IMG/VR virus record: IMGVR_UViG_3300021961_000019 | Source of the DNA: a virus | Length of the DNA stretch: 64,000 nt | Strand: one strand, 5' to 3' | Shown here: positions 16,390 through 33,684 of the stretch, in pieces | How the letters are laid out: each line of letters begins with the position of its first letter | How positions within the stretch are numbered: the first letter of the stretch is position 1 | Position numbers and translations under genes: made by a program | Notes under the pieces: model-generated | Told to the model about the DNA's origin: nothing | Seen by the model: only the letters and a program-made list of their open reading frames with translations | The model's database searches: none

Positions 16390-16418
16390 ATTATACGACA
16401 TTCAACACAATTGCGCAA
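16390..16418 (-). promoter_or_regulatory. Sigma70-like promoter of g55
   Basis: TTGCGC (16413-16418)-N17-TATAAT (16390-16395). Confidence 0.7.
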
Positions 16419-16422
16419 GGCC

Positions 16423-16496
16423 TTGACAAGGAACCAAAACAGCAGTAGACTACCTTTGTTAGGGTTGAAGGATGAGTTATAGCTTAGCTTTAAGAC
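16423..16496 (+). repeat. Promoter-plus-leader element, copy 1 (putative small/antisense RNA start)
   Basis: TTGACA-N17-TAGACT; 16446-16493 matches 33609-33656 at 45/48 nt; no + strand gene downstream. Confidence 0.8.
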
Positions 16497-16900
16497 TCTG
16501 GTTCTAAACCATAAATCTTCTCTAGAATTTCCTTTGCTTCAGTAATACTAGAGATATATCCCTGTTCTCTGGTGAGAGTGGTTTGATTGGGATGTTGATC
16601 CGGATTAAGTGCAAACTGACGGGTATATTGATGGTAGATTTTTATCATCTCCATATCTTTTGTTTCACACATCGTTAAGACATCATTCTTATCAATTACA
16701 AACATATCATTAGTAGTTGTCTTAAGCCAGGGTTCAACTTTATACCCAGAACCAGATCTGCTTTTAAATTCACTAATAACTACTGGACAATGCAGCATAA
16801 TGAGAGTTCTATCTCCCTCTTCTAAAACAGCTGCCTTGCAAAATAATTCTTCACTTGTCTTTAATTTTATTGTTGCATAAAAATCTTCTTCTATACCCAT
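16490..16900 (-). CDS. Conserved T4-like cyanophage protein between uvsW and g55, possible Sm-like fold
   Basis: FYATIKLKTSEELF...VEPW.K...DMFVI...VLTM.E; conserved synteny; fold is inference. Confidence 0.75.
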   Translation of the reverse strand: MGIEEDFYATIKLKTSEELFCKAAVLEEGDRTLIMLHCPVVISEFKSRSGSGYKVEPWLKTTTNDMFVIDKNDVLTMCETKDMEMIKIYHQYTRQFALNPDQHPNQTTLTREQGYISSITEAKEILEKIYGLEPES

Positions 16901-16904
16901 ATTT

Positions 16905-18362
16905 TTATAGATTAACTGTGATTATGTCATAATTAAATTTCTCTTCGTTATAGATCTTGATTCTTTCAATTAGATGATTTAAAGTGAAATTTCGTTTTTG
17001 CTTGTATGTGCAATCATCTGATATATCGTAGAGAATTGCTTTAGTTTTTGTCTTAGACTTTCTAAGAACTCTTCCAATACTTTGGAGATTTCTAATTCTT
17101 GATTTGGATGGAGAAGCAAAGATTACATTATGCAAATTCTTAATGTTAATCCCGGTGCTAAATGTTCCGTAAGATGCAATAATGATTGCACTATCCTCTT
17201 TCTCCGTGATTTCTCTAACTAGCTCACGTTCCTCTGCATCCACACCACCATGAACAAAAAAGATTTTTCTGTTCATATGTTTGCTACTATTTATGAGATC
17301 ATAGAGAACCTGTCCATGAGCAGCAACTCTATTATACAGAACAAGAGTATTTCCCTTTAGATCCAAAGATAGATTGCATATAAACTTATTTCTTTTCTCA
17401 TGAGAGATTAAGTATTGAATTTCATCCTCATAGGTTTCAAATCTCTTTGGGGGATGCTTAAGAACAATGCACTTAATATCTAATTGTGATAGATGTCCTT
17501 GCTCCATCAATTCAGAAGTTCTAGTAACTTTGTATGATGGTCCAAATAATCCCTCTAACACCCATTTATGCGTCTGTGTGCCGTCCAAAGTTCCAGTGAA
17601 CCCAAATCTATACTTGGTGTGATGAAGCTTGGTCATTATGTCGATTAATGACTTACTCTTGAATAGGTGTGCTTCATCTCCAATAACTACATTATAATCT
17701 TCAAAGAATAAACGTTCCAGTTTGTAAATTGACTGCCATGTGGTAATTGTGACCGAATATTCATTTGTCTTTTCTCTTCCCGAATATATGCGATGACAGT
17801 ATGACTCAGCATCCCAACCATAATCAACAAAATCCTTATACATTTGTTCTACAAGACTTGTCGTTGGAACAACTAGAAGAATTTTTTGTCCTTTATCCAC
17901 ATAGTATCTTACAAGGGAATAAATCATCAGAGATTTGCCTGATGCAGTGGGACTTATCAATAGTTTTCGGTTATACTTTAGAGCATCATATACTCCATCA
18001 ACTTGATAATCTCTAGGTGTATGAGTGCATATTGATCTCATATATCCAGACACACCTTCCTTGGTAATATCTTCGTTTGATTCGAAGGGACTACCGTAGA
18101 ATTTATTGTCCTTGAACGTATACTCGTATCCATATTGATGGCAGAACTCAACTACCTTATCTAAAAGTCCAACATAGATTTGTTTAGACCTCGAATCAAA
18201 AAGGTGTATTTCTCCATTCCAGTTTCTTTTTCGATATTGGGGCATAAACTTTGCACCCTCAACCTGAAATGTGAAATGGTCACGCAATTCATATTCTACA
18301 TGCGGTTCAGTCTCTACTTTTAGAAAGACTTCATTCGCCTTACTTATAATAAGTTCTGTCAT
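16905..18362 (-). CDS. uvsW: DNA helicase UvsW
   Basis: PRDYQ, SPTASGKS, GDEAH, GFTGT, QSIGRVLR SF2 motifs. Confidence 0.97.
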   Translation of the reverse strand: MTELIISKANEVFLKVETEPHVEYELRDHFTFQVEGAKFMPQYRKRNWNGEIHLFDSRSKQIYVGLLDKVVEFCHQYGYEYTFKDNKFYGSPFESNEDITKEGVSGYMRSICTHTPRDYQVDGVYDALKYNRKLLISPTASGKSLMIYSLVRYYVDKGQKILLVVPTTSLVEQMYKDFVDYGWDAESYCHRIYSGREKTNEYSVTITTWQSIYKLERLFFEDYNVVIGDEAHLFKSKSLIDIMTKLHHTKYRFGFTGTLDGTQTHKWVLEGLFGPSYKVTRTSELMEQGHLSQLDIKCIVLKHPPKRFETYEDEIQYLISHEKRNKFICNLSLDLKGNTLVLYNRVAAHGQVLYDLINSSKHMNRKIFFVHGGVDAEERELVREITEKEDSAIIIASYGTFSTGINIKNLHNVIFASPSKSRIRNLQSIGRVLRKSKTKTKAILYDISDDCTYKQKRNFTLNHLIERIKIYNEEKFNYDIITVNL

Positions 18363-18389
18363 ATTACCTCAACTCAAGTGAGTTCAATA

Positions 18390-18572
18390 TTATTCCGTGC
18401 GGAATTTGTAATCTAGTATTGGTCTGTATAATTTATTTTTTAGATCGTTAAGATGTTGCTGCTCAAATGGATGTCTAGATGGATATCCTTCCCAAGACTC
18501 TATTCTTCTACAAACACAATCATATAAAAGATGCACATCTTCAATTGATAGATCTAATTTGTAATCGGACAT
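18390..18572 (-). CDS. Small hypothetical protein
   Basis: 60 aa, packed between uvsY and uvsW. Confidence 0.7.
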   Translation of the reverse strand: MSDYKLDLSIEDVHLLYDCVCRRIESWEGYPSRHPFEQQHLNDLKNKLYRPILDYKFRTE

Positions 18573-18573
18573 A

Positions 18574-19017
18574 TTACCCTAAACCTGCTGTGAAACGGAT
18601 GAATTCGATTGCATTCTTGATTTGATATGTCCTGTTCTGAATAACCTTTAAAATACTTTCTATGTAGTTTAGAATCGTATCGTAGTAATCCAATTTGAGA
18701 GAGATTGAAGAAAGTCTCTCATCGGCATCCAAATATTTTTGAAGAGTATCTTTATCGCGGATTTTTTTGGGGAATGGATTCTCTAGGTAAACATCGGGAT
18801 CCGCTTTTCCAGAATAATACTCATAGCGTTCGTGCCTTATATTTCTTCTCTGCTGCTCAGCCTTCTTACGCAAAAGAATGGTTGTGTTATACAACTCAAA
18901 ATATTTTGCATGTAAAACTGGTATATTTAATGACTCTGTGTGTAGATTGTCAATATCAATTTGGGAATCTTTCTCCCACATTTGTTGAATTAATTCAAGA
19001 TTGATCTGGTTCGTCAT
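18574..19017 (-). CDS. uvsY: Recombination mediator UvsY
   Basis: DSQIDIDNLH.ESL.IP.LHAKY, RYEYYSGKA, I.NRTYQIKNAIEF. Confidence 0.92.
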   Translation of the reverse strand: MTNQINLELIQQMWEKDSQIDIDNLHTESLNIPVLHAKYFELYNTTILLRKKAEQQRRNIRHERYEYYSGKADPDVYLENPFPKKIRDKDTLQKYLDADERLSSISLKLDYYDTILNYIESILKVIQNRTYQIKNAIEFIRFTAGLG

Positions 19018-19585
19018 AATGTAATGGTTTGCCTCCCAAAGTTACTATGTCGTAGATAGTATACTTAAATGCCACCTCAGCGGTGATATATTCCAAGTCT
19101 GGATCTGTTGCACTAAAATCCAATGCACTCAGATACGTTGGCCAAAGATCCCTGAACACTACTTTGAATGAAGGATTATTGGAACTCGTAAGAATATTTA
19201 GTGTGCCATCACAGAAGAGATTCAGAAGCGATGGGTGTTCTTGAACATCTAATCCAGGATTGGTAAACTGGCGATCATAGATGTCCATCAAACTATCTGG
19301 ATATCCACATCCACGTATCCAGTGATGGATTTCCATGTAATTCTCAAGGTTTTCATCAACCATGAACCTGACACGGAAATCCTCAAAGGAAACCTTATCT
19401 CCGGGAACATCAATATCCTTTAGTCCGGTTGGTTGTATAGCTGCACCAAGACTGATTCCAGGTATTTGTGCTCCATTCCCAAAGAAAGCAACTTTTGGTG
19501 CTCTATTCAGAATTAATTTAAAACCAACGTTGGAAAGAAAATTCCTGTTGGTAATTTGGTTTTTTAAACCGTTACTGATTGCCAT
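18995..19585 (-). CDS. g3: Tail tube terminator/completion protein gp3
   Basis: NRNFLS..GFK......P.V.FF...A.IPGISLG, VPGDKV.F.D..V.F.VDE.L.NY.EI..W; follows g23. Confidence 0.88.
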   Translation of the reverse strand: MAISNGLKNQITNRNFLSNVGFKLILNRAPKVAFFGNGAQIPGISLGAAIQPTGLKDIDVPGDKVSFEDFRVRFMVDENLENYMEIHHWIRGCGYPDSLMDIYDRQFTNPGLDVQEHPSLLNLFCDGTLNILTSSNNPSFKVVFRDLWPTYLSALDFSATDPDLEYITAEVAFKYTIYDIVTLGGKPLHYDEPDQS

Positions 19586-19609
19586 TTCAAAATTGCCTTT
19601 ATTTATTAT

Positions 19610-19696
19610 TTATCCTGGGTATGCGTGATGAAGACCCCAGTTCACAAAAACAGCAGCAACAGCAAATACAGAAAGAGTTTTAATCAAAAGATTCAT
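19610..19696 (-). CDS. 28-aa single-TM peptide, not in ORF track
   Basis: MNLLIKTLSVFAVAAVFVNWGLHHAYPG*; ATAAATA at 19720-19726. Confidence 0.6.
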   Translation of the reverse strand: MNLLIKTLSVFAVAAVFVNWGLHHAYPG

Positions 19697-19726
19697 ATTC
19701 AATTATTAAATCAACGTAGTATTTAT

Positions 19727-19816
19727 CTACGATTGCCACCCATTCAAAAGACTCCAATGAAGAAAGTAAACTATTGGTGTAAAAATGAGAATAGTCTTGA
19801 GGAAAAGTAGTAACAT
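19727..19816 (-). CDS. 29-aa single-TM peptide, paralog of 19610-19696, not in ORF track
   Basis: MLLLFLKTILIFTPIVYFLHWSLLNGWQS*; TATAAATA at 19860-19867. Confidence 0.55.
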   Translation of the reverse strand: MLLLFLKTILIFTPIVYFLHWSLLNGWQS

Positions 19817-19894
19817 GTTCGGTTATTGCGAATGCATTACTATTTTATAAAAAACTAGGTATTTATACTGTATTTTGTTAGAAAATGGTGACAT

Positions 19895-19919
19895 AAAAAA
19901 AGACCCCCTTGCGGGGGTC
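19895..19919 (-). terminator. g23 terminator (GCAA tetraloop)
   Basis: GACCCCC-GCAA-GGGGGTC-TTTTTTT on the minus strand. Confidence 0.92.
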
Positions 19920-19943
19920 CCAGTTGAACTTTGTGAAAATGGA

Positions 19944-21365
19944 TCACATGAGGTTCTTAACTGCAACGCGACGGTAGTAGCGGTTTGCATTAACCTGAAG
20001 ACGGCCGAGACCAGCGTTAGTGCCTTCTGCAAATGGGTTTGCAACAAGACCATAACGGGTCTTAAAGCCAATCTTGGGCTGGAAGGTGTCCTCACCAACG
20101 GCACGAACCATTTGGAGGGGAACATAAGGACAGTAGAACAGTCCAGCATCATAAGGGGAAGAACCCTTATAACCGATGACGTAATACTGGTTGCCAGAAG
20201 CGGTATTACCAGCAGCAAGGTTTGCCGAATAAGGATCGATGTATACGCGATACTTACCAAGCAGAATACCTGCGAAGGTGTTGCCAGTGTCATCAACGTT
20301 GAGGTTTGCGTTCAGTGCAGGGGTGTAATCAAGAACACCAGCCATGCTCAGAGCAGAAGCAACGTCTGCAGAGCAAAGGATGATGTTGCCCTTTCCACGA
20401 CGAGTGCGCTGTGCAATTCTGTTTGCATCACGCTCAATCTGGAACAGGAGACCCTTGAACTTCTCAACAGACCAACGACCGTTGGAGTCAACGTCGAGGT
20501 CAAATACGCCAGGAGTTGCGGTATTTTCTACAGCACCTTGCTCAGCAACCTTATAGATGGTTCTGATGACTTCACGGTTGATCTCAGCAAGAATCTCTGT
20601 GGAGAGAATGTTTGCGAGTTCCGCTTCAGCATTCAGACCGTGGATTGCCTTCAGGTCTTGTGCAAGCTCAAGGCTGTATTCTGCCTTCAGGGCACGTGAC
20701 TTTGCAGTAACGGTGACTTTCTCAATCGAGAATGCCATCTCGTTGAATGCTGCACCAGCAGTTCCAAGGTTCTCAGAATCGCCAGTAGGCATACCCTGAC
20801 CAACATTGTAGCCGAGGGAGTTTGCAGTTCCAACTGGGTTGAGAACGGATGGGTTGGTGCCAGCCTGGATGGTAGAACCAATACCAGCGTTGTTGTCAGC
20901 GAAGTCTTGGTTGATTGCAGCACCATAAGCAGCGTTCTGACCAGAGAATACTGTATCTGCTTCGTTGAAGAATGCCTCTTGACCAGACTGATTAACGTAG
21001 CGCGAACGCATTGCGAAAATCAGACCAGTAGGACCGGACATTGGCTGCACACCAGCAAGGTCATAAGCGACCAGATTAGGCATGGAGCGACGAATGAGGC
21101 TGATCAGCACAGGGTCGAAACCTGCGGTTGGGCTGCCACTTGTGCCACCGAAAGCACCCTGAGCACCAGCAGCGTTGCCGCTATTGGTTGGAGCTTCCAT
21201 CAGGGACTGCATCGAACCATTGTCGAATGCAGATTGCTCGCGGAGGAATCTTTCTTGGTTTTCGAGCAGGACAGCGGTTACGGCTCTACGATGAGGATCG
21301 GAGATTTCTTCACCATAATTGAGAAGAGGTGCCCACTTTTCCTGCAATTGCTCGGAATGGAACAT
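19944..21365 (-). CDS. g23: Major capsid protein gp23
   Basis: LQEKWAPLL, FDPVLISLIRRSMPNL.AYD..GVQPM.GPTGLIFAMRSRY, KAEYSLELAQDLKAIHG, FQPKIGFKTRYG. Confidence 0.99.
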   Translation of the reverse strand: MFHSEQLQEKWAPLLNYGEEISDPHRRAVTAVLLENQERFLREQSAFDNGSMQSLMEAPTNSGNAAGAQGAFGGTSGSPTAGFDPVLISLIRRSMPNLVAYDLAGVQPMSGPTGLIFAMRSRYVNQSGQEAFFNEADTVFSGQNAAYGAAINQDFADNNAGIGSTIQAGTNPSVLNPVGTANSLGYNVGQGMPTGDSENLGTAGAAFNEMAFSIEKVTVTAKSRALKAEYSLELAQDLKAIHGLNAEAELANILSTEILAEINREVIRTIYKVAEQGAVENTATPGVFDLDVDSNGRWSVEKFKGLLFQIERDANRIAQRTRRGKGNIILCSADVASALSMAGVLDYTPALNANLNVDDTGNTFAGILLGKYRVYIDPYSANLAAGNTASGNQYYVIGYKGSSPYDAGLFYCPYVPLQMVRAVGEDTFQPKIGFKTRYGLVANPFAEGTNAGLGRLQVNANRYYRRVAVKNLM

Positions 21366-21422
21366 TTGCTTTTACCTTTAAAATAGTTGTTTACGTTTGA
21401 ATTTGAATTATATTAAATTCAA

Positions 21423-22559
21423 TTATTTGCTAAATTGTGAAAGTGTCTTCAGATATGCTGCCATCGATCCGGAAACTGATTCCGGTGAGGAATCAACACC
21501 TTCTGACAGAGTTTCAGTTTTAGCGGTTGGAGCTTTGCCGGGAGCAAAATATGCTTCCTTCAGAGTTTCCAACTTTTCACGATATGCTTCTTCACTTTCA
21601 AACTCAACACTTTCGGCAAGTGAAGCGAGCTTGTCTTTCTGTGTGGCCGCAAGACCTTCAGAAATTTCGTCAAGAATGTTGTCTGCAACAGCCTCTGCAA
21701 GACGCTTGTTGAGATTTACATTCTTCTCAATCTGCTCGTTGAGTTTTGTCTCCATGTCATCAAGTTTTTCTACCATGCTCTCAAGAACATCATATTTATC
21801 TTCAGGGATTGCTACATAATGATCTTCAAAAAGTCCTCTTAAGTTATGGAGGAACGATTCAGTAAGTTCGGTCTTAAGACCATGCTCTATTGCTAGGGCA
21901 TTCTCAGTAAACCACTCTTCGCTTACATACTCCAGGTATGAATCTACGCGAAGTGCTAGTGATTCTTTGATAGCTTCGACTTCTTCCAGGAGTTGCTCTT
22001 CGTATTGAACTTGGAGATCTTCCTTGATCTCAGCAACTTTGGAGAGTAGTGCGGACTCAAAGATGGTGCGAGCCTTATCTTGGAATTCCTCAGAAAGATC
22101 TTCGTCAGCAAGAAGTGCATTAACATCTTCTTCGATGTCATACTCTTCCTTACATTCCTTCTCGTCTTCCTCATCCTCATCTTCGTCCTCATCCTCTTCA
22201 TCTGCTTCTTTAGCAGCAGCCTCTAGGAGTTCTTCGTCCTCATCATCCAATTCAAGCTCTTCTTCTTCCTTAACTGCACCACCCTTAAGGTGTGGCATAG
22301 CATCGGCAGCTGCAGCACCCTTATTAACAACATCCTTAACTTGCTTAAGGGTTGCGCCAGGGGTCTTCAGTTTAGCTGAATCGTCGTCAGACTTATAGTT
22401 TTCTGGTGTAGGTCCACCAAGATCTTCCCAATTGCCACTCTGGCCTGGGGTGTCTCCGGATAGAGAAGGCATGGGATCTGCTGCTTTTGCACCAGCATTA
22501 ACAGCGGTTTTTGAGTGCTTTGTGCCTACTTCCATCTCTTGTAAATCTTCACGGGACAT
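21423..22559 (-). CDS. g22: Prohead core scaffold protein gp22
   Basis: Acidic coiled coil; DSYLEY.SEEW..EN.LAIE.G...E..ESF; between g21 and g23; TATAAATA at 22598-22605. Confidence 0.95.
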   Translation of the reverse strand: MSREDLQEMEVGTKHSKTAVNAGAKAADPMPSLSGDTPGQSGNWEDLGGPTPENYKSDDDSAKLKTPGATLKQVKDVVNKGAAAADAMPHLKGGAVKEEEELELDDEDEELLEAAAKEADEEDEDEDEDEEDEKECKEEYDIEEDVNALLADEDLSEEFQDKARTIFESALLSKVAEIKEDLQVQYEEQLLEEVEAIKESLALRVDSYLEYVSEEWFTENALAIEHGLKTELTESFLHNLRGLFEDHYVAIPEDKYDVLESMVEKLDDMETKLNEQIEKNVNLNKRLAEAVADNILDEISEGLAATQKDKLASLAESVEFESEEAYREKLETLKEAYFAPGKAPTAKTETLSEGVDSSPESVSGSMAAYLKTLSQFSK

Positions 22560-22607
22560 TTGAACTCTCCGATTTTTTCCTAGAATTAATCTATATTTAT
22601 TTATAAA

Positions 22608-23258
22608 TTAGAGATTTGCCAGAAAGTCATTAAACAATTGTAGTTTATGCTCCTGCAACCTTTTTTCATCCACCAAAGTATTAATTCTTCTGGTGGTGGT
22701 TTCAGCGAGTTTTTCACGAAGGATTCCACCTTCCCAAACCCACTCTTTACCTTCCATAATTCCCTGAACAAATGCATCAGGTGCAGAAGGATCTGCTACA
22801 ATATCAGCAGCAGTTGCAAGCATAAAGTCTTCACCGACTTCCATCCAACCTTCTTTTGTTTGTCTTACGGATCCAATACCTCTTGACGAAACGCCAAGAG
22901 TTACTCCCTCTTTGAGAAGAGACTCCGCAATTTTGCCCATAGGTGTTGATAAAATTTGTGCCTTTCCAATAAAGTTATTTCCACGTTGTTCTAGGGAAAC
23001 AATCTTATGAGAAACGCGGTCAAGATTAACTGTTGGACCCTCTGGGTGTCCAAGTTCACCTAAAGCACGACCCTTGTTAATATATCCTTCAGTATAACGC
23101 TTGACCTCTCTCTCCATTACATCGCGACGATAGACTCGATTATTACGATTCTTCTGCTCAGTTTGAAGAAATGGTCCGGTAATATAGAGGGTCTTTTTGC
23201 CGTTCACACTTTCAGTAATGACCTTTACTGATTCAATTTCTTCTGTGATGAGTAACAT
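22608..23258 (-). CDS. g21: Prohead protease gp21
   Basis: LITEE, NRNNRVY, RALGELGHP, LGVSSRG.GS, DIVADPSAPDAFV.GIME; start trimmed. Confidence 0.96.
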   Translation of the reverse strand: MLLITEEIESVKVITESVNGKKTLYITGPFLQTEQKNRNNRVYRRDVMEREVKRYTEGYINKGRALGELGHPEGPTVNLDRVSHKIVSLEQRGNNFIGKAQILSTPMGKIAESLLKEGVTLGVSSRGIGSVRQTKEGWMEVGEDFMLATAADIVADPSAPDAFVQGIMEGKEWVWEGGILREKLAETTTRRINTLVDEKRLQEHKLQLFNDFLANL

Positions 23259-23259
23259 C

Positions 23260-23811
23260 TTAGGCGTCTCCTGTAACTTGAACTTGCTGAGCATAAAGAG
23301 TTCCTGATCCAGAACTTGTTCTAGATGAAATCTTGACCGATCTTCTCAGAACACCATCTGGCGCAGTAAAATCATGACCAACTGCTATAGAATTGTATGA
23401 AATTCCAATTCCAGTAGAGAAGGATCCATCATAGGATGCTCTATTGTCCACAGAAATTACTCTTTGGTGAGTAAAGTTCCATGCAGAATCAATTGTGGAT
23501 GTGAACGATACATAATCGCCAACTGCAAATACGGTTCCAGTACCTTCTGCAAAGGTTACTGTAGTAATTGCTCCGGATGAAATACCAGCAACTACCTGTG
23601 TTGCTGTATCAAGTGTCAACGTTGCAGAGGTTCCAGCAGGAATGAGATAATCAGTTACAGCAGCAGTTGGGCTGTAACCAATTGCCACATGTGCATTCTG
23701 CTGATCCGCTACAATACGAATTGATTTTGTTTGTACTGAAATCGGAACAGATAGTGCGGGTGATGTGGTAATCGCAAAAGATGTCCCATTTCCAACTGGT
23801 CTATGCGTCAT
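23260..23811 (-). CDS. Conserved virion-region hypothetical protein upstream of g21
   Basis: Beta-rich, S/T-rich; stop 2 nt from g21 start. Confidence 0.75.
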   Translation of the reverse strand: MTHRPVGNGTSFAITTSPALSVPISVQTKSIRIVADQQNAHVAIGYSPTAAVTDYLIPAGTSATLTLDTATQVVAGISSGAITTVTFAEGTGTVFAVGDYVSFTSTIDSAWNFTHQRVISVDNRASYDGSFSTGIGISYNSIAVGHDFTAPDGVLRRSVKISSRTSSGSGTLYAQQVQVTGDA

Positions 23812-23847
23812 TTTCTTTGGGCGTTTATTTAGTTATTTATTCATTTA

Positions 23848-25056
23848 TTAAGTTAAGTCATAAAATTCCAGAGAACCAATAGCATCTCCTGACCCCGATA
23901 ATGTTCTAATTGCCAGTGTGATAATGTCACTTACCTTTGCCTGAGTTCTTCCGAGCTGAAGATCCCAATTATATTCTTCAGAGGTGGAGACTGCACCACT
24001 TGCTTGATTTGATCCTGCAAGATATTCTCTATGAATGATTTGTCCACCAGAAAGCGCAGTGGATGTTCTATCAAAATAGACGTTTGGTGATGGTGAAGAT
24101 GAAAATGCTGCCCCAGTTAGAGTTGCATTTTTAATCACAGCAATTTCATAATTAATATTGTTACTTAATGGTAATGTTTGATAAGTATGAAGAAGTATAA
24201 TTCCATCTCCTCTTTCTGGTGCCAAACGATATGAAACTAAGGGTTGAAAAGTTAATCCAATTCCAGTCAGAGGTTGTGGTCTTGCAATGGTATTTGGAGC
24301 AACTTTTTTTTCATATCCCCCGTTTGATATGATGGATACACAAACTTGCTTCAACGTTGATGCTGATCCAACATTTCCAGTGTTGATAATTTCATATCTA
24401 ATTGGAAGAGATGCCGTCGTCATGTAAACAGAATTCAACGTATTTGCATGATCAAAACGGTGTGCAATAATAAATGTCCCATCAACTACAACTCCAACTC
24501 TCACCGATCCCGCACCCAACCACTCAAACTCCGAAAATAAAATTTGAATTTTTGATGGATCTAGGATAACTCCACTTGGACCATTTCCATCAAGAGTGTC
24601 GTGGTTCCATTCGGATTGTGGAACTGTGACTACGGTTCCAACACCAGAAATTGCTGTGCGCTTAATAATGTTCAGGTCAGATCCATTCAATTCCAACATC
24701 ACACCATTCTCTGATGATGCATATCCAACTCTCTGTACCAGATTTGGTTTTGGTGCTTCAAAAACAAATGTCTGAAGACATTGTAGAGATTTTCCGGGTT
24801 GATATTTGTATACTCTTTTGCTTTCGCGAATATAACTGCACCCAGATGTACTCCCAATGGTTAATGTTGCCGTACTTTGTGATGTAATAATTCCAGAAGT
24901 TGATCCGGATCCAACAATCACATCATCAAAATCCCCATCCTGAGAATATCTGTGAGACGCATCAAATACTGTATATGGATTTGATACTTTCAATCTTCCA
25001 AATAAATCTCCAGAGAAACCCTTTCCTAGGGGACTCTGATCATATAAGTGTGACAT
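23848..25056 (-). CDS. Putative virion structural protein (beta-rich, possibly lectin-like)
   Basis: DLFGRLKVSNP.T.FD N-terminus; G/S/T-rich; lies in head operon. Confidence 0.7.
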   Translation of the reverse strand: MSHLYDQSPLGKGFSGDLFGRLKVSNPYTVFDASHRYSQDGDFDDVIVGSGSTSGIITSQSTATLTIGSTSGCSYIRESKRVYKYQPGKSLQCLQTFVFEAPKPNLVQRVGYASSENGVMLELNGSDLNIIKRTAISGVGTVVTVPQSEWNHDTLDGNGPSGVILDPSKIQILFSEFEWLGAGSVRVGVVVDGTFIIAHRFDHANTLNSVYMTTASLPIRYEIINTGNVGSASTLKQVCVSIISNGGYEKKVAPNTIARPQPLTGIGLTFQPLVSYRLAPERGDGIILLHTYQTLPLSNNINYEIAVIKNATLTGAAFSSSPSPNVYFDRTSTALSGGQIIHREYLAGSNQASGAVSTSEEYNWDLQLGRTQAKVSDIITLAIRTLSGSGDAIGSLEFYDLT

Positions 25057-25808: not shown

Positions 25809-25972
25809 TCCTCATCAGTCACCCCAGGTTGAAACATAGATTGGGCTACAATAGGTTTTGCAACATCAATCCTTTCAGATGCCTTTGCAAAAAGCATATC
25901 CTTGATTTTGTCACTAATATCCGATGGGGAACTATCAGTAACAATCATATCCATAAGATCATCCATTTCCAT
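25805..25972 (-). CDS. Small acidic protein after g20 (gp67-position prohead core candidate), below ORF-track cutoff
   Basis: MEMDDLMDMIVTDSSPSDISDKIKDMLFAKASERIDVAKPIVAQSMFQPGVTDEE* (55 aa). Confidence 0.75.
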   Translation of the reverse strand: MEMDDLMDMIVTDSSPSDISDKIKDMLFAKASERIDVAKPIVAQSMFQPGVTDEE

Positions 25973-26010
25973 ATCTAATCCTAATTTGAATTAAAAGTCT
26001 GTTCTATTTA

Positions 26011-27678
26011 TTAGATCTCTCCGCCAGAAGGAGGTTCAAATTTAGATGCATCTGCTTCCATATCCGGTTCCATAACCGGACTTCCCAAATCAGGTTGCAT
26101 CGATGGATCCATAGGTTGCCCTGTTGCAGGATCTATAGGTGCATTTGGATCTGGAATTTCACCATTTTCAATTTCCTTAGTGATGATTTTATCTTGCTCT
26201 ATAATTTCCTCATCATTTTGACGAAGAATTTGCTTTCTGACATAATCCTTGGAGAAATACTTGCCAACATAAGGTTCTGCAGTAGCAACCAAGTTGAGTC
26301 TTTCTGTTAGAATTTCCGCATCCTTCAATTCTGAGAAGTGATTGTCATATAGGAAATCGTATTGAATATGTTGCGCCATCTTATCCCAATCTTCTGGTGT
26401 GATGATGTTCTTCAGAATGAGTTGTGTCTTAAGAATATCATTAAACATATTTGAGAATCTCATTCTCAAACGACCAACAAATTTGGTGAACTTAAGTTCA
26501 TCTCTCAAAATTTCCGATGATCTGCCAAGATTAAATCCACTATCACCATCCATTCTGGATGATGGGACATTCAGGGAGCGGAACAACTTCTTCTTGAAGT
26601 ATTCAATATCGGTAATTTCTCCAAGATTTTGGCCACCTGGGAGAGTTGTGATTTCAGTTCCTCTTCCACCTTCTCTACGTGGAAGCCAGAAATCTTCTAG
26701 CATACTCATATACTTCTTATCATCACGGATTTCTCCTGTAGATGCATCGTATACAAGTTTGTTTCTATATCTCATCATCACATCGCGCAGATACTGCTCT
26801 GCCTTTACCTTTGGAAGGTTGCCAACGTCAATATAGAAAATTCTTCTTTCTGGTGCGCGTGACAGACGATAGATCACAAGACTATCCTCAATCATTCTAA
26901 GTTGATTGAGGGACTTAATTGCTTTATGAAGATATGATAAGCAAATGCCCTTATTCCTATCAATCAGACCCGAGTTGCAATATGCGATTGCATCTCTTGT
27001 GATCTTAATTCCACCTTCTCCACCCATAGATGCTGGGTTTTGTGATGGATAATTTCTTTGTGGATTGTAGATAAAATACTCATCAATCTGAGGGAATTCG
27101 TAGTTCAAAGGATCCCCCATATCCTTTTGTCTATAATTGATTGCTTTTTGATTATTATCTTCCTTTCTCTGCTGACGGACATAACGAATCTTCATGGAAT
27201 CAATATATCTCAATTCCTGAATACCCTCATGGGGGTTTTTAAAATCAATCACCTTGTGGTAATAGATTCTACCATCAACATACCAGTTTCTATAAATTTC
27301 ATGGCACTTTTTGTTAAAGTCAAGAAGACTTAGAATGTGCTTAAATTCTTCTCTAATTTTTTTCTTAATACCATCACTTGCATTAAGATTTGAGAGTTCA
27401 ATCTTAACAGGAACATCATTCGAATCTGAAACGATTGCTTCATTCACAATATCTTCAATTGCACTATCACACTCTGGATGAAGTGCCATTTCACGATATC
27501 TTTTAATGAGATCAAACTCGGTTCTATAGACTCCCTCAATATCTACATAAGACCCAAAAAATCCACTAGTCAGATAATGATCAACCCCATCCTCAGAATT
27601 TTGAGGAACAGGGGACACCGCACTAGGGGATAATTTATCAGAATCGTCTTCAAGAGAAAAACCAAACAAACGTGTCAT
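26011..27678 (-). CDS. g20: Portal protein gp20
   Basis: YREMALHPECDSAIEDIVNE, WYVDGR, MIEDSLVIYRLSRAPERRIFYIDVGNLPK.KAEQY, EDFWLPRREGGRGTEI. Confidence 0.99.
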   Translation of the reverse strand: MTRLFGFSLEDDSDKLSPSAVSPVPQNSEDGVDHYLTSGFFGSYVDIEGVYRTEFDLIKRYREMALHPECDSAIEDIVNEAIVSDSNDVPVKIELSNLNASDGIKKKIREEFKHILSLLDFNKKCHEIYRNWYVDGRIYYHKVIDFKNPHEGIQELRYIDSMKIRYVRQQRKEDNNQKAINYRQKDMGDPLNYEFPQIDEYFIYNPQRNYPSQNPASMGGEGGIKITRDAIAYCNSGLIDRNKGICLSYLHKAIKSLNQLRMIEDSLVIYRLSRAPERRIFYIDVGNLPKVKAEQYLRDVMMRYRNKLVYDASTGEIRDDKKYMSMLEDFWLPRREGGRGTEITTLPGGQNLGEITDIEYFKKKLFRSLNVPSSRMDGDSGFNLGRSSEILRDELKFTKFVGRLRMRFSNMFNDILKTQLILKNIITPEDWDKMAQHIQYDFLYDNHFSELKDAEILTERLNLVATAEPYVGKYFSKDYVRKQILRQNDEEIIEQDKIITKEIENGEIPDPNAPIDPATGQPMDPSMQPDLGSPVMEPDMEADASKFEPPSGGEI

Positions 27679-27716
27679 TATTAGAGAATGAATTGATCTC
27701 TTCTATTTATGAACAT

Positions 27717-27744
27717 AAAAAAAGACCCCCCTTGCGGAGGGTCT
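27717..27744 (-). terminator. g19 terminator (GCAA tetraloop)
   Basis: AGACCCTCC-GCAA-GGGGGGTCT plus U-tract; near copy of the g23 terminator. Confidence 0.9.
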
Positions 27745-27759
27745 GAATGTTTTGGTGAA

Positions 27760-28374
27760 TCAAGCACCAGCACCAGCAGCTTCTGGGTAGAAGTATTGAA
27801 CTTGCAGTTCTACTGTGAACTCCTCAAGAGTATCTGTTGACTCATAGGAGAGGTCAATTGCAGAAACATTAGTTGGGAATACATCCACGAACTGGTATTG
27901 TGCCAGAATTTCAGCATTTCCACTATCGGTTGCATTGCCCTGTTGTACAACAGGTGCTCTACCAAGCTGGAAGACCTTTGCCATGCCCATGTAATCGGCA
28001 GGATTGGTGAGACCAGAGTGATCGCCATACTGAGCGACGTTCTGCATCCATGCTTCGAAGGATCTTCTGTGACTGAAGTTCTCATCGTTGATGACTGTGA
28101 TGGTCCAGGTGTCGAAGGTTCTGTCTCCAGCAACCTTCAGAATACGACCTCTGAATGGAACATCAACGGGAGCAACGTTAGAAGCTGGCAGAGCAGCTGC
28201 CTTGCACAGGAATCTGAAGTTGTTGGCGTCGAATGTGCCACCACCATCACCTTGAACGCCCAGATTAACTCCGGTTGGGAAAGTTACGTCAACCTCAAAG
28301 AGGTTGGGGCGGGCACCGCCGCCAACCAATTGAGACTTAAATTGTGATACGCCTCTGACTGGAATAGTTGCCAT
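27760..28374 (-). CDS. g19: Tail tube protein gp19
   Basis: GGGARPNLFEV, FLCKAA.LP.S.V....V.FRGR.LK.AGDRTF..WT.TVIND, FP..VS.IDLS. Confidence 0.96.
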   Translation of the reverse strand: MATIPVRGVSQFKSQLVGGGARPNLFEVDVTFPTGVNLGVQGDGGGTFDANNFRFLCKAAALPASNVAPVDVPFRGRILKVAGDRTFDTWTITVINDENFSHRRSFEAWMQNVAQYGDHSGLTNPADYMGMAKVFQLGRAPVVQQGNATDSGNAEILAQYQFVDVFPTNVSAIDLSYESTDTLEEFTVELQVQYFYPEAAGAGA

Positions 28375-28421
28375 TTTTTAAATCCTCTTGCTGTAGTTTG
28401 TGATATGGTTTACAGTTAAAA

Positions 28422-30608
28422 TCAAACGGTGCCTGCAACCTCTTCGAAGTCAACTCCGGTGCGAGTTGCTACGAAGGTCAGGGTTACATAGTTAATGGAC
28501 TTAGCAGGCTTCAGGAAGATGTCTGCTCTGAACTCGTTATTGTCAATAACGTCAGGTGTGTTGTTTGTCTCATCGCAAACTACAAGGAATCCATACAGAC
28601 CACGCTTCGCTTGAACATCGCGGAGATAAGGTTCTACGATGTTTACGAAGTTTGCTCTTGTAATTTGGTCATTCAGTTCGAAGAGTTGTGCCTGAGCGGA
28701 TCTCTCAAGTGCTTGCTCCACGGTAAGGAACAGACGACGAACGTTAATTCTATCGAATGCGGATGAATATCCGAGAGCAGTCTTATCACCGAAGAGAAGA
28801 ATACCAATTCCTGGTTGGTTCACAATCGCGTTTACACGTTGTGGATACAGGCGGTCTCTTTGTGCCTTATTAGGATTATAAGCAAGTTTGATTGCGTTGT
28901 TCAGAATGCCTCTTTGCTGACCCGCTGGTGAGAACCAAGGATATGCAAAGATGCTAGTTCTTACACACAGACCGGCAACGTCTGCGTTACATGGAATCCA
29001 GCGGAATCTGTTGTTGAAGCGGTCATACATGTACTTATAACCACTGTCAAATGTCACGTATGAAGAAGATCCAAGTGAGCTGAAGAACTCAATTACGTTG
29101 TCAGTTTGAGTATTTGTATTTGTCAGATCAACAACGTCTTCACGGTGAGGTGAAATCATCGCCATGCAATCCTTTCTCAGGTTTGCAACAGAGATTAGGT
29201 GATTTGCCTTGGCCTGTGATTCATCCTTATAAAGGCAACCAGGACCCATGATTAGGTAATCAACCGCGATTTCGTCTCTGTTGGCGAAGAGTTCGTAACC
29301 AGTAATTAGGTCTCCAAGTTCTGCCTTCATACCACCAGCAGCAGAGTAGTCAACACCACCAGTAAGGTTGTATGTGACATTACCGATAGAGCTGAAGTTG
29401 AGGCTCTGTACATCGCGGTTCCAGGAACCATCAGACTCGGTGATTGGATTCCATCCACCAAGAGTATCAAATCCGTTTGCTCTTGGAGTTGTATCGTGAT
29501 ATGTGTCTACACCAGTTGATGGGTTGTCACCAACAAACAGATAGTCGGAGAATTGTGCGATATACTCCTTCCAGAAGATCTTCTGAGGCGAGTTGACTGC
29601 AGAGATGCAATCTTTTGCCTTGGAGATGTTAATGTGCTTCTCTAGGAGGTTTCCGGTGATGCCTGTTACGGTTCCGCTGTCATCGATGACAACAACGTGC
29701 ATCGCGTCGTTCTTACCTCTTCTATCAGAAGCGTAGCGGTTTGTTTGTGGTTTTGGAGCAATAGATCTCCAGTAGATCGATGCGTTTGTGAGTTCAAGTT
29801 TCTGGGACTCGTACCAATCAGTAACCTCAGCAGCAATAAATCCAGTACCAACTCCAGCACCAGAGTTATTGACGAAGCTCAGGGAGTCATTCTTGAGGTA
29901 TGAAGCAACTCTAGAGAACTCTGCATAAGAAATTGCAGTTGCGACTCCAGCAGAAGTTACTCTCTCAACGATCTTAACATCGATGGTGCTGTTGCCAGTT
30001 GCGGCAGTTGTAACACCAGTAATGATGCCCTTCACATAACCGGTGAAGAGTTCTGTAGCACCAACACCAGCGAATACGCTATTGATGCCAACGGTTACAC
30101 CATAACCGATCAGAGCACCAGCAGCGCCAAGGTCAGCAGTAGCAATACCGATGGTCTGGTCTGCCAGATCGTCGATCATGCAAACTTTAAGGTTGTTTGC
30201 CCAAGATCCAGGGTTCTTCGCAGCAAAGACATAATCGGCAATATCATCTGCCCAATTTGCCTCATAGTCGTCAAAGTTCTTGATCTTTACTGTGGTGTTT
30301 GCAGCACCAACACCAGCATTAGCATTGTTAAGTGCTCCACCATCTGCTCTTACGACTTTAAGAATGCCGCCATAAGAGAGGAATGATGAGCAGCTCAGCC
30401 AATACTCATACTGTGCATCAGTAGAAAGTGGCTTACCGAAGTTCTTGATGAGATCCTGCTCGGTAAAGATGTCAATTGGGTCTTCAACTGGACCGATTGC
30501 AAAGGGACCCGCAATTGCTCCAATATTATCTAAAACATTATCAGCTCTTCCTACTGTTAAGTCAACCTCCCTAATCAATACGCCGGGAGACAATTGAGGA
30601 GTCGCCAT
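28422..30608 (-). CDS. g18: Tail sheath protein gp18
   Basis: SPGVLIREVDLT, PWFSPAG..RG, GDKT......AFDRINVRRLF, KSINY.TLTFVATRTG. Confidence 0.98.
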   Translation of the reverse strand: MATPQLSPGVLIREVDLTVGRADNVLDNIGAIAGPFAIGPVEDPIDIFTEQDLIKNFGKPLSTDAQYEYWLSCSSFLSYGGILKVVRADGGALNNANAGVGAANTTVKIKNFDDYEANWADDIADYVFAAKNPGSWANNLKVCMIDDLADQTIGIATADLGAAGALIGYGVTVGINSVFAGVGATELFTGYVKGIITGVTTAATGNSTIDVKIVERVTSAGVATAISYAEFSRVASYLKNDSLSFVNNSGAGVGTGFIAAEVTDWYESQKLELTNASIYWRSIAPKPQTNRYASDRRGKNDAMHVVVIDDSGTVTGITGNLLEKHINISKAKDCISAVNSPQKIFWKEYIAQFSDYLFVGDNPSTGVDTYHDTTPRANGFDTLGGWNPITESDGSWNRDVQSLNFSSIGNVTYNLTGGVDYSAAGGMKAELGDLITGYELFANRDEIAVDYLIMGPGCLYKDESQAKANHLISVANLRKDCMAMISPHREDVVDLTNTNTQTDNVIEFFSSLGSSSYVTFDSGYKYMYDRFNNRFRWIPCNADVAGLCVRTSIFAYPWFSPAGQQRGILNNAIKLAYNPNKAQRDRLYPQRVNAIVNQPGIGILLFGDKTALGYSSAFDRINVRRLFLTVEQALERSAQAQLFELNDQITRANFVNIVEPYLRDVQAKRGLYGFLVVCDETNNTPDVIDNNEFRADIFLKPAKSINYVTLTFVATRTGVDFEEVAGTV

Positions 30609-30664
30609 GTTTTTTTGCTCCTTGAAACTCAGATATTTCTAAAAATATTTATTAATTTGAACAT

Positions 30665-32314
30665 TTACATGTAGTCCCACATGTGTGCCATGTCTCCATA
30701 CTCGTCTGTAAACCATCTATCGCCATTTTCATCAACGAAACTTCCGTCTTCTGTTCCATCAACAATAAACCCAAAAGGAGCCATGTCCTGTTCTATCTGA
30801 TTTTTCTGCTCTTCATATAAACGCTTTCTCACATCTTGATCAGTTAGTTCCTTAAAGTAGTCTTGTGCAACTAACCAAGCATAGATCACCAAGCACATTG
30901 CCAGGTCATCATTACACCCCTCTTCTGCCTCAAAGGAGTTGTGTTTCTGAATGAATGTGGTTAATTCACTCATAATATCATAATCCCAGAATAGAAGTTT
31001 ATCTTCTTCTATCATGGTCTTGAGATTGAGTGATCCAACCTTCTTCACGGTCTTGGACATTTTCACACCCATCTGGGTCTTCTTTCCAGAAAATCCCTGA
31101 CCAACAATCTGTCCAGCTCTACCACGCATCGAGCACATGAGTATGTTCTGATACTCCAGATCGTAGTGTAGAATGCTGGCAACCTGATCTCCAACATCAT
31201 TCACTTCACACAAAATATATGCATTATTATAGTTCTTCGCGACTTCATAAATGACGCTTGGAAACAGCATCGGTTTAATATCATTATTCCTATACTTGGC
31301 AACAACCTTATGTGGGAATGTTGTGATATCAACCACAACAAATGCCGAGTAATCCTTACTGACACCTCTTGCAACATCAACTGTAATCAAATAGTCATTA
31401 TTTTTTACCGCATCATAATATACATCCAATCCACTACTACTGGTTTGTGGCGTCTCATAGATGAGAGAACGTAGTTTACTTGGCGCAATAAGAGTATCAA
31501 CAGATCCAAGAAATTCACATTCAAACTCAACTTTGAATTGTGCTTCCGATGTATTTGCAATGGTCTGTGCTTTCCATTCACTATCGCGCCCAGGAACTTC
31601 TGACCAATGAACATCTGTTGGCACGTATTCATTCTTTCCGCGTTCGGCATCGTGCCACATGCGGTAGAAGTGATTCATACCATGTGGCGTTGATACAATA
31701 ATAACCTTCGTAGATTTACCTGAGGTAATTGTTGGATATACCGACGCAAAGAATGAATCTGCGATGTGATTTGGAACGAATGCAAATTCGTCCAGGAATA
31801 GAATGTTGAAAGACATTCCTCGGACGGCAGATGCTGACGTGGATGCTGCTAGGATCTTTGATCCATTCTCTAATTCTAAGGACCCCCTGTTCCACGACAA
31901 GATGCCTTGTTGCATCCACTTGGGCAAATTCTCATAAGCAATCTGCAACCTACCCAAAAGTTCCCTAGCAGTTGCTGCTTTGTTTGCCAGAATGCCAATA
32001 TTTACACTGTCATTAAATACCGCATAGTGAAGAAGAAATGACACCACAGTGGTAGATTTACCAGTCTGTCGGGGCATCTTACAGATATTAAATCTATGAT
32101 CATGAAAATTTTGTATCAGTTTCTGCTGAAACGGATACATTTTAAATGGTTGCAAACCATGATCAAGAGTTACGATCTGGATGTAATTTTGCGTAAAGTA
32201 TACCGGATCTTCTTTACACTTGATGAACTCAAGAATCTGGTCTTGAGTGAATTCCATCTGGGTATTAGCCTTTTTAAGATTAGGGTTCCCCAGGTATATG
32301 TCATGCCCCGCCAT
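30665..32314 (-). CDS. g17: Terminase large subunit gp17
   Basis: YLGNPNLK, MPRQTGKST, FLDEFAFVP, STPHG.NHFY, DDLAM; 549 aa, no intein. Confidence 0.98.
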   Translation of the reverse strand: MAGHDIYLGNPNLKKANTQMEFTQDQILEFIKCKEDPVYFTQNYIQIVTLDHGLQPFKMYPFQQKLIQNFHDHRFNICKMPRQTGKSTTVVSFLLHYAVFNDSVNIGILANKAATARELLGRLQIAYENLPKWMQQGILSWNRGSLELENGSKILAASTSASAVRGMSFNILFLDEFAFVPNHIADSFFASVYPTITSGKSTKVIIVSTPHGMNHFYRMWHDAERGKNEYVPTDVHWSEVPGRDSEWKAQTIANTSEAQFKVEFECEFLGSVDTLIAPSKLRSLIYETPQTSSSGLDVYYDAVKNNDYLITVDVARGVSKDYSAFVVVDITTFPHKVVAKYRNNDIKPMLFPSVIYEVAKNYNNAYILCEVNDVGDQVASILHYDLEYQNILMCSMRGRAGQIVGQGFSGKKTQMGVKMSKTVKKVGSLNLKTMIEEDKLLFWDYDIMSELTTFIQKHNSFEAEEGCNDDLAMCLVIYAWLVAQDYFKELTDQDVRKRLYEEQKNQIEQDMAPFGFIVDGTEDGSFVDENGDRWFTDEYGDMAHMWDYM

Positions 32315-32402
32315 AATAACTTACAAACTCTCCACAAAAACTTGTATAATGTATATCGTCTAAAAATCGAACTAATCAGAACAAAGGTTAAGAGTAGTTC
32401 TT

Positions 32403-33533
32403 CTACCATTTAACTTTGTTTGCCCAGTATGCAGCACTCATCTTTCCTTTTGCAATATTCTTTGCATGTCTAGTTTGGAATCTATGGCGACGACTTGCAT
32501 ATTCTTTAGATTCTCCCTCTTTCTTTGGAGATCCCTTCACTCCCCTTTGACCGAAGCGAATAATCTTTTCCTTGCCATCCGCACATGCCTTTACAACATG
32601 CGACTTTCCGGTTTCTCCAGAACCGTGGGATTGTGCCTTTGGCTTGTTACATGCCATAGCATCCTTATCAATACCCTCACGCACCTGTAGGAGCATTCCG
32701 GGATTGAAGTCTGTAACCTTATATCTAATCAATCTGCAACCAGGATATACCTTATTAATCTGATCTAACACTTGCTTTCTTGTTGGGAACTTTGCCTGAG
32801 CAAAGAACATCTTATGAACAAAGTTTCTTCCTCTCCAATAAACCTCAACGAAAACGAGATTTCCTACTGCAGCATCCAAGCGACGAATTGCTTCCTTGAT
32901 TTCTTCTGAACATACACAAGGATTACGCTCACATACTGGGCAAATATCACACTTGCATTCTTTCTTACCACACTTTTCACACTCTCCACAATTTTCACAT
33001 TCTTCCTTCACTTTTATTTGAGTATACACTCTCTTCTTACCATCTGGAGATGGGACAAACTCACCAAAATCACCAGCAGATGGATCATTCTTATCTACAT
33101 CACCATCAACATCAACATCAACTCTCTTTACTGCTTTTTTTACTAAGGACTTTAAATTTCTATCTGGAATTTCGTGTGGAGCATGAATTTTGAGTTTTCC
33201 CCCAGCGGTTCCTGCTGGTGTTCCCTGATCCTTTTTATCTACATCACTATCAACATCGGTGTCAATTCTCCCAACTGCCTTCTTAACAAGAGACGCTAGA
33301 TTTGATTTGGGAACTTCATGAACTCCATGAACCTTGGACTTTTGTTCATCCATGGCCATTCTAATCATTCTGGATTGATTTTCCAATCTATCTCTTTTAT
33401 CACAATTACCCCTCTTTTCACAACCAACTTCTTTTTGAGCCTCCATATCCTTATCAAATGCCTTAAGAGACATCTTCTCTTTTGGAAGTGGCTTCTTTGC
33501 TTCGTGAATATTGTTGGATTTATCGTAGGTCAT
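32403..33533 (-). CDS. Modular late protein (DxDxDG repeats, Cys cluster, basic C-terminal domain)
   Basis: Two KSL.KKAV.R.D.DVD.DVDK.D repeats; 10 Cys in 30 aa; C-terminal IIRFG...RF..RH...SAAYWA..KW; TAAATA upstream. Confidence 0.8.
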   Translation of the reverse strand: MTYDKSNNIHEAKKPLPKEKMSLKAFDKDMEAQKEVGCEKRGNCDKRDRLENQSRMIRMAMDEQKSKVHGVHEVPKSNLASLVKKAVGRIDTDVDSDVDKKDQGTPAGTAGGKLKIHAPHEIPDRNLKSLVKKAVKRVDVDVDGDVDKNDPSAGDFGEFVPSPDGKKRVYTQIKVKEECENCGECEKCGKKECKCDICPVCERNPCVCSEEIKEAIRRLDAAVGNLVFVEVYWRGRNFVHKMFFAQAKFPTRKQVLDQINKVYPGCRLIRYKVTDFNPGMLLQVREGIDKDAMACNKPKAQSHGSGETGKSHVVKACADGKEKIIRFGQRGVKGSPKKEGESKEYASRRHRFQTRHAKNIAKGKMSAAYWANKVKW

Positions 33534-33585
33534 TTTACCGATAATTTTGCCATATTAGTTATTTAGTAAATACTTACATGAGGGC

Positions 33586-33660
33586 TTGACAAGTTCTTAA
33601 ATACCCATTAGACTACCTTTGTTAGGGTTGATAGATGAGGTATAGCTTAGCTTTAAAGAC
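33586..33660 (+). repeat. Promoter-plus-leader element, copy 2
   Basis: TTGACA (33586-33591)-N17-TAGACT (33609-33614); 45/48 identical to copy 1. Confidence 0.8.
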
Positions 33661-33684
33661 ATGATACTTTGAGCATAAACTAAT

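Follow-up and report, generated by a model that had tools for sequence, protein, structure and literature searches.

Introduction

Among the closest described objects to the element reported here are the PeSL cassettes of T4-type phages, in which a near-consensus sigma-70 early promoter is combined with a stem-loop and which mediate the shuffling of genes (Arbiol et al. 2010, PMC2839356; Comeau et al. 2014, PMC4122927); these two papers did not cover cyanophages. T4 replication origins such as oriF(uvsY) and oriG(34) are likewise built on promoters: they consist of a promoter and an A+T-rich unwinding element, need no specific sequence, occur several times per genome near points of transcriptional divergence and are shut off by late UvsW (Kreuzer and Brister 2010, PMC3016281). 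In early promoters of the T5 N25 type, a strong consensus promoter is followed by C-poor, purine-rich first ~20 transcribed bases (PMC12464699; PMC5961368), and a discrete antisense RNA of ~225 nucleotides (nt), CfrI, has been shown experimentally at the psbA locus of the T4-like cyanophage S-PM2 (Millard et al. 2010, as cited in PMC2984593). T4-like cyanophages are without the MotA/AsiA and Alt/Mod transcription-timing machinery of T4 (PMC2984593), and little is yet understood of how their expression is ordered into early, middle and late phases. Here, a promoter with a conserved start-site box is described that is present twice in a 64,000-nt stretch (the window) of the IMG/VR virus record IMGVR_UViG_3300021961_000019, a viral contig of 154 kb that is ~79 % complete (the source genome). 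No description of this element was found in the cyanophage literature searched.

The element is probably a conserved promoter module with one fixed, backward-facing copy at gene 55 (g55), which encodes the late sigma factor gp55, and with secondary, portable copies that drive accessory genes. The module is specific to the T4-like cyanophage group, in which it is found two or three times per genome, and it offers a concrete handle on expression timing. Like PeSL cassettes, it is a repeated near-consensus early promoter (TTGACA-N17-TAnAAT) of a T4-like genome, located beside variable accessory genes and patchily distributed between relatives, and some relatives have the -35 hexamer fused to a terminator hairpin (loci with a SegE-type gene; the P-HM2 g55 promoter). 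It differs from them in occurring 2-3 times per genome, where PeSLs typically number dozens, and without clustering in hyperplastic regions, in a defining conserved part that is a start-site box downstream of the -10 hexamer and not a stem-loop, in the absence of a terminator-like hairpin adjoining the window copies, and in one copy that is fixed in a core region, facing backwards, throughout the phage group; because of these differences it is not regarded as a member of the PeSL family.

With T4 oriF and oriG the module shares a promoter followed by AT-richer DNA, several occurrences per genome, location at a divergence point and adjacent uvsY/uvsW genes, whereas the promoters of the T4 origins are MotA-dependent middle promoters, with no sequence conserved at the start site (PMC3016281), and the extra copies of the module are evolutionarily labile. 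The copy at g55 is predicted, like CfrI, to make a non-coding transcript antisense to the genes of a T4-like cyanophage; in contrast to CfrI, no discrete end or structure was found for it. Compared with promoters of the T5 N25 type, the conserved block includes the discriminator (-6 to -1), is preserved to the individual base in many phages and varies in concert between the copies of one genome; in E. coli, a C-poor, purine-rich start of the transcript increases productive yield.

Results and Discussion

Copies of the module in the source genome

A repeat search returned one repeat family in the window (16418-16493 versus 33581-33656; 76 nt, 82 % identity). Re-reading of both copies bore out the initial annotation of the window, which had reported a repeat with fixed promoter spacing: copy 1 and copy 2 each consist of TTGACA, a spacer of exactly 17 nt and TAGACT (Table 1), and are identical at 45 of 48 bases from the -10 hexamer onwards, with spacers that agree at only 7 of 17 positions. 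The hexamers of both copies match the sigma-70 consensus (TTGACA/TATAAT) at 10 of 12 positions, at a spacing within 17 ± 1 nt. With a tolerance of three mismatches, the 23-nt core has just two occurrences in the whole source genome (154 kb), and within the window a covariance model matched only these two copies (33.4 and 32.8 bits). A third, diverged copy was found beyond the window by a promoter-site scan and the covariance model (G000:C1:136198-136251, minus strand); it reads TTGACA, 17 nt and TACAAT, followed by the box with one T-to-C change, and lies upstream of a co-directional open reading frame (ORF) of ~207 amino acids (aa; G000 135466-136089). The source genome contains 31 sites of the form TTGAC-N17-19-TAnnnT, and the box is present on the three copies only, no further site of the genome being similar to the module; a generic early promoter was rejected, as 3 of these 31 promoter-like sites have the box.

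Distribution among relatives

The exact core was found in 29 other viral contigs, and a search with a shorter 14-mer returned 86 sites, all with CTTGACA, a variable 17-nt spacer and TAGAMT immediately upstream. To guard against circularity, 80 gp55 loci were gathered by protein homology alone (72-84 % identity), 79 of which were usable. An outward-facing TTGAC-N17-19-TAnnnT was present within 140 nt of gp55, ~47 nt from its start, at all 79 loci, and a strict or recognisable box at 73 of them. The same arrangement was found in the cultured phages S-SKS1, S-PM2, SynMITS9220M01, Syn1, S-RIM2 and P-RSM1; P-HM2 has kept the backward g55 promoter with a strongly diverged box and has no other copies, and a recognisable box is kept in the Methylophilales phage Melnitz. 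In S-PM2 and Syn1 the back-to-back -35 hexamers at g55 make an inverted repeat. Since the same backward promoter stands at 79/79 gp55 loci and in seven cultured cyanomyoviruses, the two window copies are not a mere local duplication but belong to a long-established family of host-type promoters of T4-like cyanophages.

A scan of one genome per species (185,579 species) gave a single box match, contig PBPJ01000027.1. This 6.6-kb contig (L154), assigned to a metagenome-assembled genome (MAG) labelled 'Candidatus Woesearchaeota archaeon', encodes homologues of gp47, gp55, GC139 and UvsW, three of these four phage homologues being at 60-70 % identity, and is therefore a piece of a cyanophage genome that was wrongly binned with an archaeon. 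Host mimicry and a host origin were rejected on the ground that this phage contig is the sole match.

Selection and concerted evolution

Paralogous copies were compared segment by segment in eight genomes. Identity was 6/6 for the -35 hexamer, 5-6/6 for the -10 hexamer in most pairs (4/6 against the third copy of the source genome) and 15-18/18 for the 18-nt box in seven of the eight genomes; for the spacer it was 3-9/17 in most (11/17 in S-PM2, 13/17 in Syn1) and for the tail, that is, the next 32 nt, 5-15/32 in most genomes (24/32 in the window, 18/32 in Syn1). Purifying selection on the -35 and -10 hexamers and on the sequence after the -10 hexamer, around a free spacer, had been proposed from the window copies; the window, the paralogue pairs of the eight genomes and 79/79 gp55 loci agree with it. 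The further proposal of a selected 48-nt leader did not hold, as ~18 nt are kept family-wide and the tails are near random in other genomes. Because paralogue tails and spacers are near random there, the 48-nt identity is lineage-specific, and the tail similarity in the window is exceptional. By this comparison, the selected unit is the promoter with the box of ~18 nt.

The box variants are genome-specific: a rare one, AACCATGT, is present in all three copies of S-RIM2, and AACTCTGTC in both copies of S-PM2. Mean box identity was 0.857 within genomes versus 0.685 between them, a value that none of 5000 label permutations reached; this test of concerted evolution covered eight genomes, three of them close relatives. 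Short-patch conversion or co-evolution with a lineage-specific reader could be the cause.

Box composition and predicted start

The triplet TGT is invariant in 70 box variants (MAFFT alignment). It lies 7-8 nt past the -10 hexamer, where a start would be expected, and offers a pyrimidine followed by a purine; we infer that transcription starts at its G. The box would then span the discriminator (-6 to -1) plus ~11 bases at the beginning of the transcript. Counted from the predicted start, positions +1 to +10 contain 8 % C and 50 % G, and +11 to +20 contain 6 % C and 75 % purines; the GC content at +21 to +60 is 19-28 %, versus 32 % across the loci, a modest AT enrichment that overlaps coding sequence at copy 1. 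In E. coli, productive yield is correlated with purine content, and the strength of a promoter can vary more than 10-fold with its initial transcribed sequence (PMC5961368).

Three other functions of the leader were considered and rejected: tiny ORFs (TTG/ATG frames, 5-11 codons), whose frames are not conserved across variants and whose start contexts are poor; a sigma-dependent pause element, the -10-like TAGGGT being confined to the box variant of the window; and a Shine-Dalgarno role of the GGAGG-like half of the box, for which the spacing to start codons is too long or there is no ORF. A resemblance to a RegA site (UUGUUA) was set aside because the motif is missing from most box variants.

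RNA structure

In the initial annotation the copies were taken to encode a small-RNA family or a shared protein-binding leader, with the 5' ~48 nt as the functional product. This is very unlikely. It would account for the identity of the two copies after the -10 hexamer in the source genome and for the conserved box followed by an A/G-rich run that could bind protein, and a gene for an Sm-like protein (PF16243, 30 bits versus a cut-off of 29.4) always adjoins the g55 copy. Against it, Rfam 15 at the gathering threshold gave no match in the window, in which no tRNA or tmRNA was found either, and no conserved terminator was present within 400 nt downstream of 78 loci, the 10 terminator-like sites found there being scattered. 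The predicted 5' ends fold like shuffled sequences (z +0.72 and -0.37, the latter for the copy 2 leader), 6 nt of the box, one third of its length, precede the predicted start, and past 18 nt the paralogues of other genomes are unrelated.

A short hairpin, ACCUU-UGUU-AGGGU, had also been suggested. For the majority of 67 variants RNAfold predicts a stem of 5-6 base pairs, which is better on the plus than on the minus strand; this asymmetry comes from the G/T-rich 3' half of the box; alone, the mini-hairpin folds unremarkably against shuffles (z -0.36 and -0.55). No covariation was detected on either of two alignments, with stem pairing no better than for shuffled partners (74.5 % versus 74.8 %, MAFFT, 70 variants; 72.3 % versus 73.4 %, structure-aware, 87 sites), and the stem slid by +1 column pairs equally well. 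Moreover, the 5' arm of the hairpin occupies -6 to -1, upstream of the predicted start, so it would be untranscribed from this promoter. The module is under purifying selection as sequence and not as RNA structure, and the element is best described as a putative regulatory promoter module, not a small-RNA gene. A terminator-like hairpin with a T-rich tail was seen at 16562-16581 on the plus strand, ~105-125 nt past the predicted start of copy 1; such sites occur at a chance-level count, and this one is not conserved in relatives.

The g55 copy and expression timing

About 45 of 78 unique instances of the element are in g55 context, where a convergent gene of ~140 aa ends ~10 nt past the box; the g55 copy is antisense to its neighbours in every case. 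Strand-specific RNA sequencing (RNA-seq) of P-HM2 placed g3, uvsY, uvsW and the GC139 homologue PHM2_128 in the Late class (cluster D), and g55, the next gene and g47 in the Middle class (cluster C; PMC5082946 S2 Table). By these assignments the g55 copy lies exactly on the late/middle boundary and points into the late unit. Of the link to the middle/late switch suggested in the initial annotation, the boundary position fits these data (uvsW and GC139 late, g55 middle), and the part that invoked a small RNA or leader was left unsupported.

According to the explanation regarded above as probable, the module, i.e. a near-consensus host sigma-70-type promoter (TTGACA, 17 nt, TAnAAT) with a ~18-nt box and then a C-poor, purine-rich run, would be used by host RNA polymerase before the late switch, starting at the G of TGT. 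The box would tune initiation or promoter escape, or serve as the target of a factor that is not the same in every phage lineage. Copy 1 would be the ancestral, fixed member of the family; facing backwards from the promoter of g55, it would fire into the late operon of GC139, uvsW and uvsY and give a non-coding antisense transcript; this transcript, or the polymerase traffic itself, may hold down early expression of the late operon and separate the operon from g55. Copy 2 and the third copy would be secondary and portable, serving as ordinary promoters of accessory genes. A role of the g55 copy in antisense timing or insulation is what we infer from its position.

Several points weigh against this explanation. 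The promoter activity, start site and antisense RNA of the module are predictions from sequence, as is the function of the box. P-HM2 has a backward promoter with a very different box, which argues that the box is not essential for the g55 copy, and it has an intrinsic terminator between GC139 and g55, so that insulation may not need a backward promoter. The RNA-seq papers on S-PM2 (PMC5931967) and P-HM2 (PMC5082946) report no antisense RNA at the position of the g55 copy, and short-patch gene conversion could give concerted evolution without a lineage-specific factor. The P-HM2 hairpin, followed by T7, is on the g55-sense strand and holds the -35 hexamer of g55 itself, TTGACA, in its loop (L258:25740-25790; NC_015284.1 ~120.74-120.79 kb); the window is without such a terminator between GC139 and g55.

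A bolder extension, to which we give little credence, is that the box marks a small cyanomyovirus-wide regulon read by a lineage-specific factor, its fixed member being an early antisense promoter. For as long as sigma-70 transcription lasts, this promoter would restrain the late uvsY-uvsW-GC139 operon and might also seed an R-loop origin at that site. Even if the module were no more than a variant promoter whose start region is optimised, it would be useful in annotation and a candidate for a strong promoter part in cyanobacteria.

Copies outside the g55 context

Each genome examined has 2-3 copies (three in the source genome, 2-3 in six cultured genomes). In S-PM2 (LN828717.1) transcription is predicted to start at ~74897 (minus strand) and ~153228 (plus strand), and the boxes of S-SKS1 (HQ633071.1) are located at 97332-97348 (plus strand) and 169849-169865 (minus strand). 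Non-g55 copies are located 9-124 nt upstream of co-directional genes, which encode a SegE-type GIY-YIG endonuclease (Pfam E 1e-52), a ResIII/DEAD helicase, an NPPY-motif ORF or a 199-aa protein; in S-PM2 and Syn1 they stand ahead of small-ORF/tRNA/cpeT clusters, after the baseplate lysozyme gene. Only ~5 of 41 unique loci with orthologues of the 199-aa gene have the box promoter ahead of it, and the non-g55 copies are labile, being gained and lost among closely related phages. The module appears to supply a portable promoter to newly arrived accessory genes, homing endonucleases included, and so bears on how abundant marine viruses acquire and express genes.

In most relatives the orthologues of the 199-aa gene have a different conserved upstream region, with a recurrent GTATTTATGATAGAATACATA-like sequence and late-type boxes (L260-L339), so that this gene would be driven by different promoter classes in different lineages. 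At the SegE-type loci (L032:3796-4317, L051, L039, L089, L097, L133), a G/C-rich terminator hairpin precedes the gene; its loop contains the -35 hexamer, and its T-run is the spacer of the box promoter. This hairpin-promoter is a PeSL-like composite, of which no earlier cyanophage description was found in the literature searched.

Alternative explanations

The conservation of the box as sequence, without RNA covariation, would also be expected of a DNA operator, at which a phage or host DNA-binding protein sitting across the start site switches the 2-3 promoters together and the box co-evolves with the protein in each lineage. The box is centred on the predicted start and contains an imperfect dyad (AACC...GGTT), and its genome-specific variants are common to unlinked copies whose -35/-10 spacers differ. 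No candidate protein was found, however, the dyad includes G/T 'pairs' that are meaningless in duplex DNA, and the concerted evolution was compared in the small genome set given above; an operator is considered rather unlikely. The same grade is given to the idea that the copies act chiefly as substrates for recombination, as PeSL cassettes do. Their likeness would then be kept by recombination or conversion and by use as portable promoters, with the g55 copy as a mere reservoir. Extra copies do flank accessory or mobile genes such as that of the SegE-type homing endonuclease, the terminator hairpin of SegE-carrying relatives embraces the -35 hexamer, and presence at the copy 2 locus is patchy. 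This idea is at odds with the low copy number, with window copies that have no adjoining stem-loop terminator and with a g55 copy whose place and orientation are fixed at 79/79 loci and in different genera, its spacer being free to drift; such fixation points to selection on the g55 copy itself.

Replication origins of the T4 oriF/oriG type are a less probable alternative still. Here, a G-rich transcript would stay hybridised downstream of the promoter and prime leading-strand synthesis until late UvsW removes the R-loop. The copy number, the divergent promoter pair at copy 1, the base composition of the predicted RNA (half G over its first 10 bases, then AT-richer) and the adjacent uvsW, which is late in P-HM2, are all in keeping with this. 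Yet the enrichment in AT is modest, and what it reflects at copy 1 is no more than the closing stretch of a coding gene; the lack of a conserved start-site sequence at T4 origins leaves the box unexplained, and non-g55 copies that come and go among close relatives (5/41 loci) would be odd for origins. GC skew was discarded as an origin marker, being monotonic and uninformative.

Genes around the window copies

The features of both loci are listed in Table 1. The back-to-back minus-strand promoter of g55 that had been noted beside copy 1 is present, and the -35 hexamers of the two are separated by 4 nt. That both copies are oriented against the main direction of the genome was likewise upheld, all 24 late-type ATAAATA heptamers of the window being on the minus strand (16.8 expected, both strands summed). 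Downstream of copy 1 there is only the convergent gene and no co-directional one; copy 2 and the third copy have a co-directional gene downstream. The strand had been called silent, which is wrong for copy 2, as a plus-strand ORF of 199 aa begins 64 nt past its predicted start site. Copy 2 appears to be the promoter and 5' leader of this gene, which the first reading had overlooked; no Pfam match was found for the 199-aa protein.

Table 1. Features at the two copies of the module (window positions; start sites are predicted).
Feature	Position	Strand	Remarks
g55, late sigma factor, 165 aa	15868..16365	-	tblastn: annotated gp55 of cultured cyanophages, up to 81 % identity
g55 own promoter	16390..16418	-	TTGCGC 16418-16413, 17 nt, TATAAT 16395-16390; back-to-back with copy 1
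Copy 1 core promoter	16423..16451	+	-35 TTGACA 16423-16428, 17-nt spacer, -10 TAGACT 16446-16451; points away from g55
Copy 1 start-site box ACCTTTGTTAGGGTTGAA	16452..16469	+	predicted start G 16458 within invariant TGT
Copy 1 tail common with copy 2	16470..16496	+	purine-rich GGATGAG, then TATAGCTTAGCTTTAA; enters stop codon of convergent gene (16490-16492)
GC139 gene, 136 aa, Sm-like	16490..16900	-	converges on copy 1; predicted copy 1 transcript antisense to it
uvsW helicase	16905..18362	-	next gene along the path of the predicted antisense transcript
376-aa gene	32403..33533	-	diverges from copy 2
Copy 2 core promoter	33586..33614	+	-35 TTGACA 33586-33591, 17-nt spacer, -10 TAGACT 33609-33614
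Copy 2 start-site box	33615..33632	+	17/18 identical to copy 1; predicted start G 33621
Remaining predicted 5' leader of 199-aa gene	33633..33684	+	first 28 nt are the tail common with copy 1
199-aa gene, PHROG 2954 (E 1.6e-50)	33685..34284	+	predicted to be driven by copy 2

GC139 carries the database label 'methylamine utilization' (PHROG 471). Its product barely reaches the Pfam Sm_like cut-off (scores given above) and has weak matches to LSm-based PDB chains; the label is probably a misnomer, and the product may be an RNA-binding protein.

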